In this document: positions 2,505 through 27,169 of the stretch, piece by piece
Layout of the letters: each line of letters begins with the position of its first letter
How positions within the stretch are numbered: the stretch's first letter is position 1
Translations under genes and position numbers: made by a program
The notes under the pieces: generated by a model
Database searches by the model: none
Told to the model about the DNA's origin: nothing
The model's input: only the letters and a program-made list of their open reading frames with translations
Source: a virus
Lineage: Duplodnaviria; Caudoviricetes
Strand: one strand, 5' to 3'
IMG/VR virus record: IMGVR_UViG_3300020045_002403
Location: 1-28,223 of that record
Length of the DNA stretch: 28,223 nt

Positions 2505-3437
2505 TTATGAGTTAGCGAAAGACCACTCAACAACATCTTCAACAAACATCACCTGAGTACCACGTGTGAAACGTGTATCAACAAGAATCTTAACATTTGT
2601 AACAGGGTCAACTCTGTATATAAAATCTTGGTCACCTTCGCCATCAATTCCTAATACTAAGTTTGATGCGTAAGTCAAGAACATTCTATCAACACCCGTT
2701 AAACCGAATGTAGGTACAAGCGTAATGTTAGTTCCGAATAATTTAGACTCACCGTCTTTACCTGCAAAATGAAATAGGTTAGCGTTAATCAAAGCGATAA
2801 CATACAAATCATAATAAGTTTGAGGTAAGAATAATTTAAGGTCTGATTTGTTTCTAATTGCAGGCGGAATAAGCAAGAACATACCTTGTAACGCTGGAAT
2901 AATTTTAGCCGCATCCATTGAGTTAACCGCCGCTGTGTTACCAGCAACCGCTGACCCTGCATCAATCCACTTTATCCAACCATCATAGAAAGATAAGTTG
3001 TTTACTGCGCTCAAAGTATCACCTTGCCAGTCACTTGTATCAAGTTCCTGAGCCATCAAAACTCTTTTTTGTTCAAAGTAAATTTTTGCAATTTCTTCAG
3101 GTAATACTTGAAGACCTGTTGTAGCACCTTGCTTCAACATAATTTGATCCCATTTACCATCTAAATCCGCCAAACATAAATCTTCAGCAGATTGCATTTT
3201 CGCAACTGTTAAGGTTTTGTCTGTACGTGTAGTTGTTCCTGATGCTGTACGTGTACAACCTGTGCCACTTGACCAGATAACATCTGTATCTAAGAAGTGC
3301 ATTTTTGTACTTCCCTTAACTCCTGCCTGTACAGTAACCATACTTGCAGTCATTTTCGGGTCTAATTGAATTGCGCCAATCAAAGGGAACTGTGAGTTCT
3401 CAATGTAGGCTGTAATGGTAGCTAAATCAAATGCCAT
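2505..3437 (-). CDS. Major capsid protein
   Basis: 310 aa, follows protease and scaffold, followed by a strong terminator. Contains WQGDT...FYDGWIK, typical of capsids of this phage type. Confidence 0.8.
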   Translation of the reverse strand: MAFDLATITAYIENSQFPLIGAIQLDPKMTASMVTVQAGVKGSTKMHFLDTDVIWSSGTGCTRTASGTTTRTDKTLTVAKMQSAEDLCLADLDGKWDQIMLKQGATTGLQVLPEEIAKIYFEQKRVLMAQELDTSDWQGDTLSAVNNLSFYDGWIKWIDAGSAVAGNTAAVNSMDAAKIIPALQGMFLLIPPAIRNKSDLKLFLPQTYYDLYVIALINANLFHFAGKDGESKLFGTNITLVPTFGLTGVDRMFLTYASNLVLGIDGEGDQDFIYRVDPVTNVKILVDTRFTRGTQVMFVEDVVEWSFANS

Positions 3438-17196: not shown

Positions 17197-17829
17197 TTAA
17201 TTCGTTCGTAAAGCAACTATTTGTTTTGCTAAGTTAACTTGATTTATTTGATTTCCTTTCATTTCTGACTTCATAATTGAACTTTCAACGTGTTGCGCTC
17301 TTATCCAATTGCTTTCGTGTGACGCACAAATAAGTTGTTTACCTTGCTTCTTTGCCTCTAAACTAAAAACTAAGTCACTCATGCGCTTATATTCGCTTTT
17401 GTATATCTCAGTTGGATTAAAGTAATCCGTTCTAAATGCCGCTACTCCCGTCCCAACCACGTCAACAATCTTATCTGTCTTTAGTTCTGCCCTATAATCA
17501 AATACCGTGTGAGTGTTACCGTAGTACTTTGTTATTGGTTCAATTAATATACGACCATGATAGGTTATGATAGCGTTGTACTTTTCAATCAGTCGAATAG
17601 TATTCTGAATATAATCGGAGGGATAGATGATGTCGGAATCGCAACAAAAGTAATACACGGGCTTCCGTAAGAACTGCAACTGATAGAACTTTGCATTGTC
17701 TGCATAGTCAGGGTTGGTTGAGTTATTGTATATATGAAGTTCATCTACTTGTTTAATTAAAGATTTAACCGTGTGTTTTAAAGTCTCGGCTCTGTCGTTT
17801 GTGGTTGCTATGCCTACAATAATTTTTAT
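17197..17829 (-). CDS. GT-A fold (GT2-like) glycosyltransferase, probable ATA start
   Basis: Frame is open 50 codons upstream of the listed TTG (IKIIVGIATTNDRAETLKHTVKSLIKQVDELHIY...). DxD motif CDSDIIYP; GTG..AF. Confidence 0.75.
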   Translation of the reverse strand: MKIIVGIATTNDRAETLKHTVKSLIKQVDELHIYNNSTNPDYADNAKFYQLQFLRKPVYYFCCDSDIIYPSDYIQNTIRLIEKYNAIITYHGRILIEPITKYYGNTHTVFDYRAELKTDKIVDVVGTGVAAFRTDYFNPTEIYKSEYKRMSDLVFSLEAKKQGKQLICASHESNWIRAQHVESSIMKSEMKGNQINQVNLAKQIVALRTN

Positions 17830-18455
17830 CTGTAACGTTTTTTAATTGCGTCAATCTTTATTTTTCTTGCCACTTGGTCAACGTCCTTACCTAAACTTTT
17901 TTGGTCAACGTGCCGCCTGTAAATGTAAAGGAATTTATCAACGTAACCAAGTGTGTAACCGTTTTTTAATAGCCATAAGTTAACATCATATTCCTCTGCA
18001 CAACTCAATGACTCATCGAATGGTTTTAAAGATAATAGTTCACGCTTATAAAATAAAGTACCGCCATGAATAACATTATTATCTAACATCATTTCAAGTG
18101 ACGGGTTGCGGTGCGTTGGTAATTGCTTTTGAATGTTTGAACCTATTTTATTATAAGCGTTGCCATGTAAAAAATCACAACCTAATAACTCCATTGCATC
18201 TACCGAATCCTTTATTGAATTAGGCGTTAACATATCATCTTCACTTAAATACTTAATATAGTCTCCCGTTGCTAAATTGATAAGGAAATTAAGATTCTCG
18301 GAGGCACTCATGTTCGCATGATTAGGACAAAGCAAATCGGAACGGAGTAACTCTATTTCAAAATCACCGGCTTGTTGATTGTAAACAGAATCTATTGCAT
18401 CCTTTAACCAACCTCTGTCTTTGTGAAAATATACGACAACACTTACCTTAATCAT
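17826..18455 (-). CDS. GT2-family glycosyltransferase
   Basis: VSVVV, AIDSVYNQ, ATGDYIKYLSEDD, FDESLSCAEEYD, YRRH. Confidence 0.9.
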   Translation of the reverse strand: MIKVSVVVYFHKDRGWLKDAIDSVYNQQAGDFEIELLRSDLLCPNHANMSASENLNFLINLATGDYIKYLSEDDMLTPNSIKDSVDAMELLGCDFLHGNAYNKIGSNIQKQLPTHRNPSLEMMLDNNVIHGGTLFYKRELLSLKPFDESLSCAEEYDVNLWLLKNGYTLGYVDKFLYIYRRHVDQKSLGKDVDQVARKIKIDAIKKRYR

Positions 18456-19345
18456 TCAATCAGTTTTAGTATCCGTTTACCCGTGTTCACAAAGCTATGA
18501 TTTTCTTTCATCAATTCATAATTTTGAATCTGAATCTGTTTAATAAATTCAACATCCAACTTTAAAAACTGCCGAATGTAGTTTGAAAAGTTGTCTTCAG
18601 TGTTGATAATTGTCATCGGACACGTACCATAAGCATCAGTATAAACTTTAGGATAAAGATTGTTAGTGATTACCACTTTGCCCATAGCACAGGCTTCTAA
18701 TCCCGTAACTCCAAAACACCCGTAAGGATTACCATTCAATTCGGGTTTAAATAGTTCTATGTAAACGTCACACTTTGCCATTCGTTCCAACTGAAAGTAA
18801 TGGTCAACCTTTTTGTTTGAATACAATAACTTAAAATCATCTTTGAACGGTTGCAACATCTCTAAAATCTTTGCCGTTCCTTTTACGTCCTCATTCGATG
18901 GGTAGTGCCCTATCTTAATAGGCTTGTCTTTTATCGTTGGTGCTAATTCAAATTCAACAGGTGAAACTATGTAAGTAAGGTTCTTGTTGAACGCAAAGAA
19001 CTCACTCTGGTCACTTATGCAAACCGTATCTTTAAAAAGAATGTCTAAAGCCTCATGACCTTCACGGTAACGTGTGCCCGTATGTGTAACTATCACTTGA
19101 CCTTTACAGTTGTTCTTTGCTAATTCAAATAAGTGAGGGTGTGAATGATGAACTACTACTACATCTGATTGTGTCATGGCGTGTGTCATTTGCCAAACAC
19201 TTGCCTTTTGCCCTTGACTAGCATAATTAAAATCGTGTAACGTGTTCACCAAGTCAACCGAATCAACACCAACAGAACGTAATGCGTTTGAGAATTGATG
19301 CGCAAAATTTGCGTAATCTATTTGAGATATGTTAAGCACTCTCAT
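18452..19345 (-). CDS. GT-B fold (GT4-like) glycosyltransferase
   Basis: Likely start MRVLNIS (TAATG overlap at 19343-19347). Motifs HYPSN..KGT..I, CDVYI, FGVTGLEACAMGKVVI. Confidence 0.8.
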   Translation of the reverse strand: MRVLNISQIDYANFAHQFSNALRSVGVDSVDLVNTLHDFNYASQGQKASVWQMTHAMTQSDVVVVHHSHPHLFELAKNNCKGQVIVTHTGTRYREGHEALDILFKDTVCISDQSEFFAFNKNLTYIVSPVEFELAPTIKDKPIKIGHYPSNEDVKGTAKILEMLQPFKDDFKLLYSNKKVDHYFQLERMAKCDVYIELFKPELNGNPYGCFGVTGLEACAMGKVVITNNLYPKVYTDAYGTCPMTIINTEDNFSNYIRQFLKLDVEFIKQIQIQNYELMKENHSFVNTGKRILKLIE

Positions 19346-19893
19346 TATTGCGTACACCCTTTACAGATAAACCAACTCTCAAACTTTTCAACATGACTAA
19401 ATCGAATCACGTTTTTGTAACGCTCAACCACCTCGTTAATCGAATGGAAATAACGAACGTGCGCAGGGTCGTTAAAGTCAGGTACGGTAAAGATAATTTC
19501 TTTGCCTAATCCTAAGTTTTTAATAATTTGATAGTCGTCTGTATGTTCAAATATTTCTAAGGCAACGAAAAAGTTATGATCTGTTCCGAATTTTGTTTTG
19601 GTTAAATCAGCAACCTCGAATTGATAATCTACCAACCCTTTCATGTTGCATTGGTTTATTGCCTCTTGGCTGAAGTCATAACCTGAATATTGTATTCCAC
19701 CCCTAGTGTCAGCAACAAGTTCTGCAAACTGCCCTGTGCCACAACCCAACTCTGTCATGTCTACGGCTAAAGGAATTAAATCCAACACCCTTAACCATTG
19801 ATAAATATAAACCGATTCTCTATAATTCTTTTTATACTCATCCGATTCTTTGTAGATGTTATCGTAGTATTCGGGTTCTCTGTTTATACTCAT
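19345..19893 (-). CDS. Class I SAM-dependent methyltransferase
   Basis: ELGCGTG, GYDFSQEAI, LEIFEH, IIFTVP. Confidence 0.9.
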   Translation of the reverse strand: MSINREPEYYDNIYKESDEYKKNYRESVYIYQWLRVLDLIPLAVDMTELGCGTGQFAELVADTRGGIQYSGYDFSQEAINQCNMKGLVDYQFEVADLTKTKFGTDHNFFVALEIFEHTDDYQIIKNLGLGKEIIFTVPDFNDPAHVRYFHSINEVVERYKNVIRFSHVEKFESWFICKGCTQ

Positions 19894-20405
19894 AATGTAA
19901 ATTCAAAAAGGAATAATTTAGGGGATAGTTCTACTTCTAAAGTTGGTTCACCAAGCACATCCGTTAAATCTTTGCGGTCTATTTGGTGGGTGTGATTTTC
20001 GTCCTTTGGAACTCCGATTGAAGTCAGTATAATAATGTTTTCTTTTGTTACGTGTTTTAATCCTTGTAATGATTTAGAAACATTCTTGACGTTATCCAAA
20101 GCAGACAACATGAATGCACTATCAAATTGCTTACCTTCAAAATTTAATAGTTCTTCTGCGCTTAACTTTTGTGTGGGTTCAACGATTGGAAACGGGTCAA
20201 TGCCAAAATAGTCGCCTGTATAATCTGAATCTTTTAAAACCGTGTGTAAATGTCTTTGTCCACAGTCAAGAACAAAATAACCAACATGAACCATTGAAAC
20301 AATCTTTTTGTATAGGTCTAAGTTAGGTGGTGAGGTTCTCTTCTCTCGCCACTTAGTTAGGTTGTTAGCTTTCTCTCGCCATTCTTTATCGGTTACTTTT
20401 TTCAT
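19890..20405 (-). CDS. Methyltransferase-like protein with shortened motif I
   Basis: VLDCG, YFGIDP, FDSAFMLSALDNV. Confidence 0.65.
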   Translation of the reverse strand: MKKVTDKEWREKANNLTKWREKRTSPPNLDLYKKIVSMVHVGYFVLDCGQRHLHTVLKDSDYTGDYFGIDPFPIVEPTQKLSAEELLNFEGKQFDSAFMLSALDNVKNVSKSLQGLKHVTKENIIILTSIGVPKDENHTHQIDRKDLTDVLGEPTLEVELSPKLFLFEFTL

Positions 20406-20782: not shown

Positions 20783-20848
20783 AACGGCTTATAACAGTCA
20801 CTATAAAGCCATTGAAACGGCTTATAGTTTGGTATTATACGCAAGCAC
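20783..20848 (+). repeat. attC-like hairpin site S1 (short core; putative resident site of array A)
   Basis: aacggcttaTAAC agtc actataaagccatt ga aacggcttatagt ttggt ATTAtacgcaagcac. Confidence 0.7.
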
Positions 20849-21230
20849 TACCATCCTGCTCCGTATTGACGATTTCACAATGGAGTAAGTCCAGAAATGG
20901 TTGTTCGCCAAAAATGACACCGTGTTCTATAAATTCTACAAAGTTTTCGGTATCAAAAACACGTTCACCGTTTAAACCAGTTCCATTGCAACTTGGGCAA
21001 TCAACATCACCAACTCCACCTTCACAGATGTATAAAAAACCATTGCATCTTGAACAAGTGTTTTCTTCACTTTCATCATCTTCATTAAACTTATCTTTCC
21101 AATTGCTACTATATCCATCCATTATAGCTTGTAGCATTGAACGTGTTTTTTGAATGAACTCGTCTTTAGTCATTTTTGGCGGTTGTGAATTTTCTTCCAT
21201 TGTGAAATCCGTATTAAATATATCTTCCAT
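20835..21230 (-). CDS. Cassette protein with DnaJ-type zinc-finger-like motifs
   Basis: CSRCNG and CPSCNGTG; its TAA stop lies inside site S1. Confidence 0.7.
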   Translation of the reverse strand: MEDIFNTDFTMEENSQPPKMTKDEFIQKTRSMLQAIMDGYSSNWKDKFNEDDESEENTCSRCNGFLYICEGGVGDVDCPSCNGTGLNGERVFDTENFVEFIEHGVIFGEQPFLDLLHCEIVNTEQDGSACV

Positions 21231-21337
21231 TTTTGTTGAGTTTTGTTGTTAATAATCCGTGCCAGCGTATAACAGCAGCTATACGCAATTTTCCCACCAC
21301 ACAAAGCCGACACACAACTGCGTATAGCTGCAAAACG
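20835..21337. mobile_element. Putative gene cassette 1 (503 bp)
   Basis: Left end ttatacgcaagcac is complementary to gtgccagcgtataa on the other side of the gene; carries one ORF plus the core of site S2. Confidence 0.65.
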
Positions 21338-21349
21338 TTATAAGCCATT
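21259..21349 (+). repeat. attC-like hairpin site S2 (long core)
   Basis: gtgccagcgtaTAAC a gcagctatacgca [loop] tgcgtatagctgc aaaac GTTAtaagccatt; perfect 13-bp stem. Confidence 0.8.
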
Positions 21350-23580: not shown

Positions 23581-23837
23581 AATTTACGTTTTTTCATTTC
23601 GTGTTTAAACCTTCTATTCAAATCTGAATCAGTGGTTTTATTTGCCTTTAAATTTAATTTTCCGATTATGTGACCCTTGTAAATAAAAGGGGTCTTGTAG
23701 CGTGAAGCCTTCTGTTGAATCACAAATCTTTTTTGTTCATCAAAATATTGCAGACAGAACGATAAGTAAGTCGTGAATGTCTCAACCCTACCGTCAGGAA
23801 ATATTACTCCTATGCTATGCTTCTTTTGTTCTCCCAT
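23574..23837 (-). CDS. Hypothetical protein
   Basis: 87-aa ORF, TAATG-coupled to recT. Confidence 0.6.
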   Translation of the reverse strand: MGEQKKHSIGVIFPDGRVETFTTYLSFCLQYFDEQKRFVIQQKASRYKTPFIYKGHIIGKLNLKANKTTDSDLNRRFKHEMKKRKLC

Positions 23838-24739
23838 TAGATTTCACTTTTTAATTTGTCAGAGATTTCCTTTTGTCCGTAGTTACGACCTGCCGAAATT
23901 GCCTCAACTTGGTTTTCTTTTAAGTATTGAATTAGTTCTGTTGCCCTGTCACTTGACAAAGATTCTAATTGAGAATAATAGATTCTGCTTTCTTCAGGTT
24001 CGATACACGCATTCATTAAAAGACTTTCTAAATAGTCAATCTGTTCGCTTGACGCTTTGTAATCTTCATTGTCTAAATCAATTGCAGTTCCTAATTTATC
24101 CCACATTTCGGTTTTAGGTAACGACTTAACCAAACGCTTTACAACTGTCTTGCGTGCCATTTCTCCGTAGTGGTCAGACCAAATACAAGACTTTGATTTA
24201 CCAGCCTTAAATGATTTGTAAGATTCTGAAACGTCACGAATATCATTTACTTGTGAGGCTGTCATTACTTCAATCATTTTCGAGCCGTCAGATAATGTTG
24301 CGACTGCGTAAACGTGTGTAAATGTTTCAGACTTGAATTGTGGTTTGTGTTTAATGCTTGTTTCAGTTCCTAAGTTTACTTCAAACTCATCGCCTTCGTA
24401 AACGACTTGACTTGATACTGAACGGGCACTACCCGTATCTGTAACCAATTTAACCAGCCCTTGATAGGAAGGTTCTAAAAAGCATTCTACCTTACCGTTT
24501 GAAAATCTTGGTACTAAGTATGCCAACTTCAAAACAGGATTCAAAGTTAATCCAACCTGCGCAACGTTCATTACCGCTTGTAATTTACTTTCAGTTGTTG
24601 ACCCGTTCAAATAAGAGTTTTTACCAAAGTGTTGCAGGGCAAATGAACATTCTTTTGTAAATGTATCTGCGTTTGTCAACGCTACAAACCTATCTTCAAT
24701 AAGTTTGAATTGGTCTTTTAATGTTAGTTCGTTGCTCAT
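23837..24739 (-). CDS. recT: RecT-family single-strand annealing recombinase
   Basis: GLTLNP..AYLVPR, SYQGL..L, VYEGDEF, W..HYGEMARKTVVKR..K.LP. Confidence 0.9.
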   Translation of the reverse strand: MSNELTLKDQFKLIEDRFVALTNADTFTKECSFALQHFGKNSYLNGSTTESKLQAVMNVAQVGLTLNPVLKLAYLVPRFSNGKVECFLEPSYQGLVKLVTDTGSARSVSSQVVYEGDEFEVNLGTETSIKHKPQFKSETFTHVYAVATLSDGSKMIEVMTASQVNDIRDVSESYKSFKAGKSKSCIWSDHYGEMARKTVVKRLVKSLPKTEMWDKLGTAIDLDNEDYKASSEQIDYLESLLMNACIEPEESRIYYSQLESLSSDRATELIQYLKENQVEAISAGRNYGQKEISDKLKSEI

Positions 24740-25267: not shown

Positions 25268-25346
25268 ACGACTGCGAATAACATTCAATATAAGCAATCG
25301 AAAATGACTGCTTATATTTCGGAGTTATACGCAAATTTTAAACACC
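25268..25346 (+). repeat. attC-like hairpin site S3 (short core; putative resident site of array B)
   Basis: acgactgcgaaTAAC attc aatataagcaatcg aaaa tgactgcttatatt tcgga GTTAtacgcaaattttaaacacc. Confidence 0.75.
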
Positions 25347-25900
25347 GCCAACGCACACCTGTTTCGCTTTATCAGGATTAGAAGCAAAGTATGGTTGCCC
25401 CCATTCCCTTCCTAATTTATCAATGCACATAAAACGATACCACGCTTTATTTAGCGGTCTGATATTGTAATCATCAATCAATCTTCCTACATAGCTTGGA
25501 TGCACATTTTCGTCATCAATAGTTTGTTGAAGCCATTTGTGGTCAATGTGCTTTTGTGCTAACTTTAGAAGATTGATTTGAACCTTACGCAAAATCGTTT
25601 TATCGTGCTGAACAAATCCTTCTCCATTTGAAAATCGGCAACCATCATCTTTCGGTAATGGGGGCAACTCAGCCATTATGTTATCCACTTTTTTAATTAA
25701 GTTTTCGTAGTCCAAACATTCATTTTCGTTGTCGAACTCTGTGCCGTCAATGGCTTCATACTTTGCAATCTTTTTCATCTTATTTTTGTTTTTAGTTAAT
25801 AATTCCTTCGCTCAAAAGGTGTTTAAAATCAGCGTATAACAGCACCTTAGCGCAATTCCCCTCCCACAAGCCAACGCAAACTGCGCCAAGCTGCAAAACG
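25325..25900. mobile_element. Putative gene cassette 2 (576 bp)
   Basis: Arms 25324-25346 and 25818-25840 are complementary at 21 of 23 positions. Confidence 0.7.
25338..25778 (-). CDS. Hypothetical cassette protein
   Basis: 146 aa; stop codon lies inside the cassette terminal arm. Confidence 0.7.
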   Translation of the reverse strand: MKKIAKYEAIDGTEFDNENECLDYENLIKKVDNIMAELPPLPKDDGCRFSNGEGFVQHDKTILRKVQINLLKLAQKHIDHKWLQQTIDDENVHPSYVGRLIDDYNIRPLNKAWYRFMCIDKLGREWGQPYFASNPDKAKQVCVGGV

Positions 25901-25915
25901 TTAGCTTCAATTGCC
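25818..25915 (+). repeat. attC-like hairpin site S4 (long core)
   Basis: ggtgtttaaaatcagcgtaTAAC a gcaccttagcgca [loop] tgcgccaagctgc aaaac GTTAgcttcaattgcc. Confidence 0.8.
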
Positions 25916-26368
25916 TCCAACCGCACAGTTTCTCGTTTCTAAAATTTCTCCAAGTTTAAAAACAAAATAGGTTTCGTGTGGTTCTGCCCCCCAATGTGTT
26001 TTGCCTTTAGCTATTTTCACACCTTTAAACTCTATTACAAATTGTGGTTTATCACTACCATATCCATTTGTAAATGTGATAGTCTTAAATTGTAGCTTAT
26101 CCCAATTTAAAGAGTGTTCAAAAATTTCAATCTCAAATGACTGCCAATTTCTAAGGCAAAACCTATTACACCAATAGTCTTTTAACTCTCGGTATTCTTC
26201 TTTTTTATAGCCTGATAGTATCATATCAAACCATTTCTTTTTTAGTGTTAAGTGTATTGTTTCCATATTTTAATTTTCGTTAATAAATCCCACACAAGGC
26301 AACTAAAGCTAACAGCACCTAAATCGCAAATTTTATGAAGAACAAAATCAGCGTTTAGCTGCAAAACG
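25901..26368. mobile_element. Putative gene cassette 3 (468 bp)
   Basis: Arms 25900-25915 and 26298-26313 are complementary at 14 of 16 positions; both mismatches are G:T on the minus strand. Confidence 0.7.
25907..26266 (-). CDS. ASCH (PUA-like) domain protein, cassette-borne
   Basis: LTLKKKWFDMILSGYKKEEYRE, ITFTNGY, WGA. Confidence 0.8.
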   Translation of the reverse strand: METIHLTLKKKWFDMILSGYKKEEYRELKDYWCNRFCLRNWQSFEIEIFEHSLNWDKLQFKTITFTNGYGSDKPQFVIEFKGVKIAKGKTHWGAEPHETYFVFKLGEILETRNCAVGGN

Positions 26369-26383
26369 TTATATCGCAATCGT
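26298..26383 (+). repeat. attC-like hairpin site S5 (long core)
   Basis: ggcaactaaagcTAAC a gcacctaaatcgc [loop] gcgtttagctgc aaaac GTTAtatcgcaatcgt. Confidence 0.8.
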
Positions 26384-27169
26384 TCACTTCCTTATTAGTA
26401 TTGTTATTATCTCTCTTAAATTGGTTTCGTTGAAGCTACACTCTTCTATCCATCTCTTAAACATCATAGCGTGAGCAACCTTTAAAATGCGTCTATCATG
26501 GTCTTCAGTCGTTTCTTCAGGTTGCATTGGTGAATCCCGTTTCTTTTTTGGTGTGATAAGTCTTGCCTGTTGACCAATTGCAATTCTCGTTTCTTTGTCG
26601 CCTGACATCTCAGGAAAATATACTTTTAAGTCATCAAATAAAATCCACCCGTTTAAATCTGTGAATGGATAAACGCCAGTTTCACAAAACTTTTCATAAG
26701 GATCAAATAAGTTCCTTTCGTAATAATCCAATTCGTTAAAAGGTTTCTCAATATAAGTAACCGTTTTTAGTTGCGATAGTTCAAACGCCCTGTATCTTTT
26801 GAACGCTCCAAGAACGTTGCCTAAAAATAGATTTGAAAGTTTATTAAAGTGACTTTCTTTGTAATCTAATTTTCCAGCACAGTACAAATCAAAAGCGTTG
26901 TCTAATTCAAATCGGTTTATATCCTTACATTCTTTGAAAAGGAATCTACAAAGTTCTTTTTCTTCTGCCTCTGTGACGGGTTCGTGTATTCCGATTCTAA
27001 ACTGAATCGCTATTAAAGTCTTACGAACTTCAAGCCACTGAGAATCATTCGGACGGTTTGGGTATTGTCTAAACTTTATCGAACGTTTCGACTGTTCCGC
27101 TATTCTCATCGGCTCTGTTAAAAGCGGATTCAAATTTGTCGTGTCTTGTTTGCTTGGTAGGTTTTCCAT
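26384..27169 (-). CDS. Hypothetical protein, possibly replication-associated
   Basis: 261 aa with ELDNAFDLYCAGKLD..HF..LS..FLG.VL..F..YR; function is inference from context. Confidence 0.65.
   Translation of the reverse strand: MENLPSKQDTTNLNPLLTEPMRIAEQSKRSIKFRQYPNRPNDSQWLEVRKTLIAIQFRIGIHEPVTEAEEKELCRFLFKECKDINRFELDNAFDLYCAGKLDYKESHFNKLSNLFLGNVLGAFKRYRAFELSQLKTVTYIEKPFNELDYYERNLFDPYEKFCETGVYPFTDLNGWILFDDLKVYFPEMSGDKETRIAIGQQARLITPKKKRDSPMQPEETTEDHDRRILKVAHAMMFKRWIEECSFNETNLREIITILIRK

Follow-up and report, generated by a model that had tools for sequence, protein, structure and literature searches.

Two reversed gene cassettes in a probable integron-like array set within a self-paired hairpin of a virus attributed to Bacteroidota

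The stretch of DNA analyzed here, referred to as the window, is the whole linear virus record IMGVR_UViG_3300020045_002403 of 28,223 bases, 84% complete according to CheckV. Its segment 25268–26383, designated array B, comprises two gene cassettes and three hairpin sites, S3, S4, and S5. We consider it probable that array B is a two-cassette array of an integron-like system of Bacteroidota phages, lying within the self-paired hairpin S3 as the likely landing site, with the tyrosine recombinase probably supplied by the host. The anatomy of the array and its mobility were demonstrated. Array B functions like an integron-derived cluster of attC sites lacking an integron integrase (CALIN) but it is non-canonical.

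The left arm of S3 (25268–25282, plus strand) is an R''-like box with an AAC end, whose partner is the right arm of S5. It is followed by the S3 hairpin body (25283–25324, plus strand; 41 nt plus the G of the crossover site G^TT), which belongs to a class of short heads with spacers of 6 and 7 (6/7). Cassette 1 (25325–25900, 576 bp) is composed of the S3 right arm, a reversed gene, and the left arm and hairpin body of S4; the gene (25338–25778, minus strand) encodes a 146-amino-acid (aa) phage protein of no known family with 92 homologues. S4 (25818–25900, plus strand) has its left arm at 25818–25840 and a 59-nt hairpin body with spacers 6/10. Cassette 2 (25901–26368, 468 bp) is built in the same way from the S4 right arm, a reversed gene (25907–26266, minus strand) for a 119-aa protein of PHROG 625, and the left arm and body of S5 (26298–26368, plus strand; left arm 26298–26313, body of 54 nt, spacers 6/10). 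The right arm of S5 (26369–26383, plus strand) is a feature of the backbone, and the stop codon of the flanking 261-aa backbone gene (26384–27169, minus strand) adjoins it. Each cassette thus runs from the TT after the crossover G up to the next hairpin, carries its gene on the folding strand, and is bounded by complementary boxes of 14 bp whose position 10 is a fixed mismatch. For the cassette genes and a 176-aa backbone gene, the stop codon and final residues are encoded within arms (25338, 25907, 21338, and 20835). AAC and GTTA cores with a hairpin are present at S3, S4, and S5, and the RYYY/RRRY part of the RYYYAAC...GTTRRRY consensus is loosely obeyed. The inner boxes show no bulge in S3 and S4 and one in S5. 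S3 folds equally well on either strand, unlike S4 and S5; S4 folds better on the minus strand.

A preliminary description of this DNA had noticed the pairing of the arms, and its coordinates were confirmed. The right arm of S3 (25324–25346) pairs with the left arm of S4 (25818–25840) at 21 of 23 positions and the right arm of S4 (25900–25915) with the left arm of S5 (26298–26313) at 14 of 16, whereas the outer arms left over (25268–25282 and 26368–26383) are complementary to each other with one bulge and one mismatch. Joining 25324 to 26369 in silico does give a single hairpin (−17.2 kcal/mol on the minus and −16.2 kcal/mol on the plus strand); this empty site is a reconstruction. The successive insertion of 576-bp and 468-bp cassettes proposed at that stage stood as far as the sizes, the mobility of the cassettes, and the G^TT crossover on the plus strand are concerned, but the order of insertion is unreadable from the sequence. 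The arms indeed exceed the 7-bp R boxes of classical attC sites; long arms, however, are a family-wide trait of 14 bp, and only cassette 1 reaches 22–23 bp. The reversal of the cassette genes relative to the site had not been remarked.

Two controls were applied to the arm pairing. Among 75,812 GTTA/TAAC-anchored pairs from 25 order-2 Markov windows, the score of cassette 1 (17) was reached by none, that of cassette 2 (11) by 10, and that of the outer pair (9) by 100, or approximately four times per shuffled window. The complementarity of cassette 1 is therefore beyond chance, but, as score 9 is common in the shuffled windows, the outer pairing carries significance solely when treated as a prediction for one leftover pair (approximately 0.13%). 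The family-aware control used 266 left and 261 right arms from foreign sites: none attained the score of cassette 1 or that of the outer pair, and one on each side (1/266 and 1/261) attained that of cassette 2.

The relatives of cassette 1 provided the evidence for mobility. Among four viral homologues of the 146-aa gene, those in loci L001 and L002 lie inside cassettes and those in L003 and L004 are without a convincing one. L001 is 86.7% identical to window positions 25324–25852, a match that starts at the crossover G and reaches into the S4 stem; both stems of S4 and the same end points are preserved among other neighbours, with one compensatory change between the arms. This match indicates that the hairpin forms a unit with the gene to its left and that crossover takes place at G^TT, and since the S4 hairpin accompanies cassette 1 in L001, the join of 25324 to 26369 is the correct reconstruction. 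Sequencing runs were also compared (four of 12 runs, within 25275–26600, which places the left flank of S3 outside; at most 9% of words were found in any run). The match of contigs of X1 and X5, from two studies, starts exactly at 25325 with unrelated sequence before it. In contigs of X1 and X2, which come from a single study, a different hairpin is followed by the sequence from 26367 on, including the right arm of S5 and the flanking gene. The S3 body was covered by none of the four runs compared, and the X1/X2 pattern is an alternative occupancy, not an empty site. Judged from these alignments, cassette 1 is mobile. The joint in X5 leading from 25816 back to 25324 was considered as a circle junction and rejected, with 23 letters intervening, no hairpin body, and other genes on both sides.

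The sites belong to a family whose pattern, built from S4, S5, L001, and S2 (a site of array A, the second array of the window), matched at least 121 viral loci (approximately 150 estimated) and 52 genome loci. Arrays were walked in every one of the 52 genome loci and in those 80 viral loci that had long flanks, which yielded 204 viral and 69 genome distinct cassettes. Cognate cassette ends paired at box positions 1–8, which is partly built into the threshold, and at positions 11–14 (0.63–0.76 versus a background of 0.26–0.40); position 10 was unpaired (0.09), and pairing was at the background level from position 15. Position 10 was an A in 265 of 273 right arms. In the inner boxes of the non-seed sites it was an A in 42 of 42, with an A/G mismatch in 33 and a right spacer of 10 in 32. 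Most of these 42 family sites keep an ungapped pairing register; in place of a conserved extrahelical base, the position-10 mismatch is conserved. On the minus strand, this mismatch becomes a G·T pair; of 143 rebuilt junctions, 141 had the higher stability on the minus strand. An open reading frame for 87 aa lies entirely within a site loop of L001 (1811–2130).

The viral cassettes were mostly reversed (173 of 204; five forward and 26 unassigned), and the genome cassettes mostly forward (42 of 69; 15 reversed and 12 unassigned). Counted by locus, for arms with at least 11 matches and with the loci not independent, 55 viral loci were reversed, none forward, and three undecided, and 10 genome loci were forward, five reversed, and five undecided. 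The idea that the reversed cassettes are host cassettes inserted via the top strand was rejected: the hairpin would flip too, and the same oriented pattern heads forward host genes and reversed phage genes.

Array A (20783–21349) consists of the 6/7 head S1, one 503-bp reversed cassette with a 131-aa gene, S2, and a right arm complementary to the left arm of S1, whose inner boxes have the same sequence as its own outer arms. Many related arrays have a head that, read by eye, is unstructured and attI-like; the heads of arrays A and B are short hairpins of 38 and 41 nt, of the 6/7 spacer class to which those of L105 and L121 also belong. Outer arms scored at least 9 in two of 53 arrays, both in the window; arrays with less than 460 nt on the left or an undefined right end were dropped from this count, and among the remaining 51 arrays 22 are possibly truncated. 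Swapped outer arms reached at least 9 in 0.8% of 636 trials, and both closing pairs carry the position-10 signature (that of array B after allowing for the bulge). An origin of the two closed sites in the recombination of two circles was rejected, as the cross pairs score just 4 and 5.

The cassettes might be real and the outer-arm pairing merely made of leftovers, either of older cassettes of the same family or of a circle junction captured by homologous recombination and later split by insertions. We hold this explanation to be possible, though distinctly less probable than the landing-site reading. Unrelated genes share arm pairs (that of cassette 2 reappears in L093, and the closing pair of array A in L096, L106, L112, L120, and L153), the right arm of S2 together with the preceding last codons resembles a cassette end of L153, the phage encodes RecT, and closure was seen in 0 of the 51 other arrays. 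On the other hand, closure occurs twice in one genome, each time at a rare 6/7 head, and no foreign arm attains the outer score of array B. Moreover, the 261-aa flanking gene is intact in comparison with a site-free orthologue and is hence not a split cassette gene.

As regards the enzyme, a short tyrosine recombinase gene is located directly at the array head in six of the 80 viral loci. A recombinase at the head was also found in L002, in Leef_1, and in Freya_10, and as a fragment in L001, where the N-terminal domain is fused to unrelated sequence (2646–3095) as a decayed enzyme. The recombinases at the heads of related arrays have the Phage_int_SAM_4 domain, as IntI does, and match the IntI profile TIGR02249 in two stretches; the three tested score 135–187 bits (cut-off 265). 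Aligned with IntI4 (VchIntIA, PDB 2a3v), these three have 30 profile positions where IntI4 has 73 residues; with approximately 43 residues missing, the IntI insertion is absent from the recombinases of the related arrays. They also score under the cut-offs for archaeal XerA and for XerC/D, which gave the best continuous structural-sequence matches (4a8e and 5hxy). Xer recombinases act on double-stranded dif sites, except for the hairpin attP of CTX-type phages. At E ≤ 1e-60, the recombinase profile matched 65 of the 201 genomes sampled from the host phylum, and 18 of 35 host recombinase loci have a family site within 1.5 kb (12 downstream on the same strand and six upstream on the opposite strand); a similar site detector gave 0–3 matches per shuffled 28 kb. 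A recombinase of this kind would act on the sites of the window. Six host recombinases (L278–L283) have an extra N-terminal domain (350–383 aa), and four of the six are followed on the same strand by a family site, a layout unlike that of the phages. The Freya isolates vary in length (44.0–48.9 kb) and in the DNA preceding the integrase.

It is improbable that array B is a canonical CALIN with standard attC sites recombined by a genuine IntI. The likeness is considerable: gene-sized units lie between AAC...GTT hairpins, the crossover is at G^TT, the cassette ends are complementary, one strand folds better, and the record is without an integrase. Three sites and no recombinase match at E ≤ 1 in the record also agree with the rule that a CALIN has two or more sites and lacks an integrase in its vicinity (PMC9024848), and CALINs have been reported in phages, among them the Polaribacter phage P12002L, two elements of which were taken as divergent attC sites (PMC9892861). 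However, the boxes are of 14 bp with the position-10 mismatch, the spacers are 6/10 or 6/7, the extrahelical bases conserved in the folded bottom strand of attC (PMC3053210) have no counterpart, and a self-paired hairpin forms the head. On the coding strand, each hairpin precedes its gene on the 5' side, and the genes are reversed; the usual integron layout has the gene on the top strand and attC downstream. The recombinases neighbouring related arrays, below the TIGR02249 cut-off and shorter than IntI4, lack an insertion described as IntI-specific and located in the catalytic domain (PMC8138268). Finally, P12002L_attC1, a member of the present family, was the sole one of six sites not recombined by IntI1 (one site, with short cloned arms; PMC9892861). 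For Bacteroidota phages, the literature, covered mostly without subscription journals, offered no description of cassettes with reversed genes, of boxes of 14 bp, or of integrases lacking the insertion, though one may exist.

The cultured Polaribacter phages P12002L and Leef_1 share the site family and the reversed genes. P12002L (L291) has about ten family sites within 29200–40950, every one with a reversed gene and several adjoining DNA methyltransferase genes; PMC9892861 leaves most of them unreported. The attC2 element of that paper is, by eye, the array head of P12002L read in the opposite direction; this head looks unstructured, unlike S3. The array of Leef_1 ends at its own short integrase, which has been read as a sign of lysogeny (PMC8776804). 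One of its cassettes holds a 46%-identical homologue of the cassette-2 gene; the Leef_1 cassette gene is ASCH-like, and an ASCH-like nature of the 119-aa protein is a weak lead. An open reading frame of Leef_1 (L261, 5634–5930) begins in a site loop and continues through the arm.

Slightly less credible still is the view that the hairpins are RNA elements, such as terminators or processing signals, and that the genes were swapped by homologous recombination between intergenic repeats with no site-specific enzyme. The coding strand is the folding strand, the S3 stem is weakly terminator-like on the coding strand (two found versus 0.9 ± 0.9 in shuffles), and RecT is present. But the complementary arms stand at opposite ends of one cassette instead of flanking one hairpin, independent contigs share end points at one base, and a recombinase heads related arrays. 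Rfam gave one chance match elsewhere in the window and, at gathering scores, no match in 16 loci of the family; the candidate motif Flavo-1 was rejected, as Rfam gives no match. An origin of the complementarity by chance in AT-rich DNA or through faulty assembly, favoured by the frequency of score 9 in shuffled windows and by an 81-nt duplication at the contig start, is very improbable and is refuted for cassette 1, the score of which no shuffled pair reached and which recurs as a unit in independent records.

For array B as an integron-like array with S3 as its landing site, the following course is proposed by analogy with integrons. The minus strand, single-stranded in replication, would fold into a hairpin with two boxes, and a short IntI/Xer-like recombinase without the IntI insertion would cut at AA^C. 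A cassette circle with a fully paired junction would then join at G^TT, and replication would resolve the product. The strand may be selected by G·T pairs (A·C on the other strand) and not by flipped-out bases. The folded minus strand of S3 would be the likely target of the non-IntI recombinase, probably the host's, and the cassettes, co-oriented with the phage genes, would be readable from the upstream operon.

Several results weigh against this interpretation. Recombination itself was not observed. The recombinase profile found no match in the window contig, 16% of which is missing, and the link to a recombinase rests on adjacency in other genomes. A paired head is evidently not required, since closure is absent in the 51 other arrays, including the 6/7-headed L105 and L121, and the closing pair of array A is a common arm pair, its score being reached by six of 266 and five of 261 foreign arms. 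L105 (3689–4070) and L121 (3487–4541, reverse strand) have flanks 94% identical with one and three different cassettes behind the 6/7 head, which speaks for the interpretation, but their head hairpins diverge directly after AAC, for which a single G^TT crossover is an insufficient explanation; the divergence hints at a second crossover position. In L121, a tRNA-like insert, seen by eye, lies beside the array. Cassette 2 did not turn up as a unit in other records: of 456 viral homologues of its gene, the best 80 yielded just four weak, chance-like arm pairs. Our searches detected no natural empty site, one-cassette variant of the array B locus, or circle junction, all envisaged in the preliminary description, and no relative of the S3 flank. 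The S5-arm pattern gave one chance match in viral contigs and none in metagenomes; the 261-aa flanking gene, used as an empty-site probe, gave one distant relative only, without a site. That complete relative, G008, has an orthologue of the gene with no site after it, no family sites, and no match to the recombinase profile. A search with the S1/S3-type pattern returned 15 loci with no family sites, 16 loci of the 98-aa left-flank gene revealed no S3-like head, and blastn of S4 against cultured phages had no match.

The record encodes terminase, portal, tape-measure, RecT (23837–24739), and sigma-like proteins, and every gene with a family match is on the minus strand. The genomes and cultured phages with the same site family suggest, without establishing it, that the host belongs to Bacteroidota. 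Positions 1–81 duplicate 502–582 at 98%, so that the portal open reading frame terminates in a repeat of its own sequence; the duplication is probably an assembly artefact. A cluster of glycosyltransferase-like and methyltransferase-like genes (17197–20405) adjoins a sigma-70 region-2 gene.

More speculatively, the short, strand-symmetric, self-paired 6/7 hairpins could be a dedicated third attachment site, neither attI nor a cassette attC. Through it, phages without an integrase would draw reversed cassettes from a pool specific to phages, by means of a host recombinase that has no IntI insertion and reads 14-bp boxes with a G·T pair in place of flipped-out bases, possibly a pre-IntI stage of integron evolution. 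Integrons have been reported as rare in Bacteroidetes (PMC9024848), whereas the recombinase is present in about a third of the sampled genomes (65 of 201) and one narrow site pattern in more than 100 viral records. The question whether hairpins are recombined without the IntI insertion and extrahelical bases becomes testable, as the cultured phages Leef_1, Freya, and P12002L and small, defined substrates from array B exist. If the mechanism holds, Bacteroidota phages would gain accessory genes site-specifically from a pool distinct from the host cassettes, even without an enzyme of their own.
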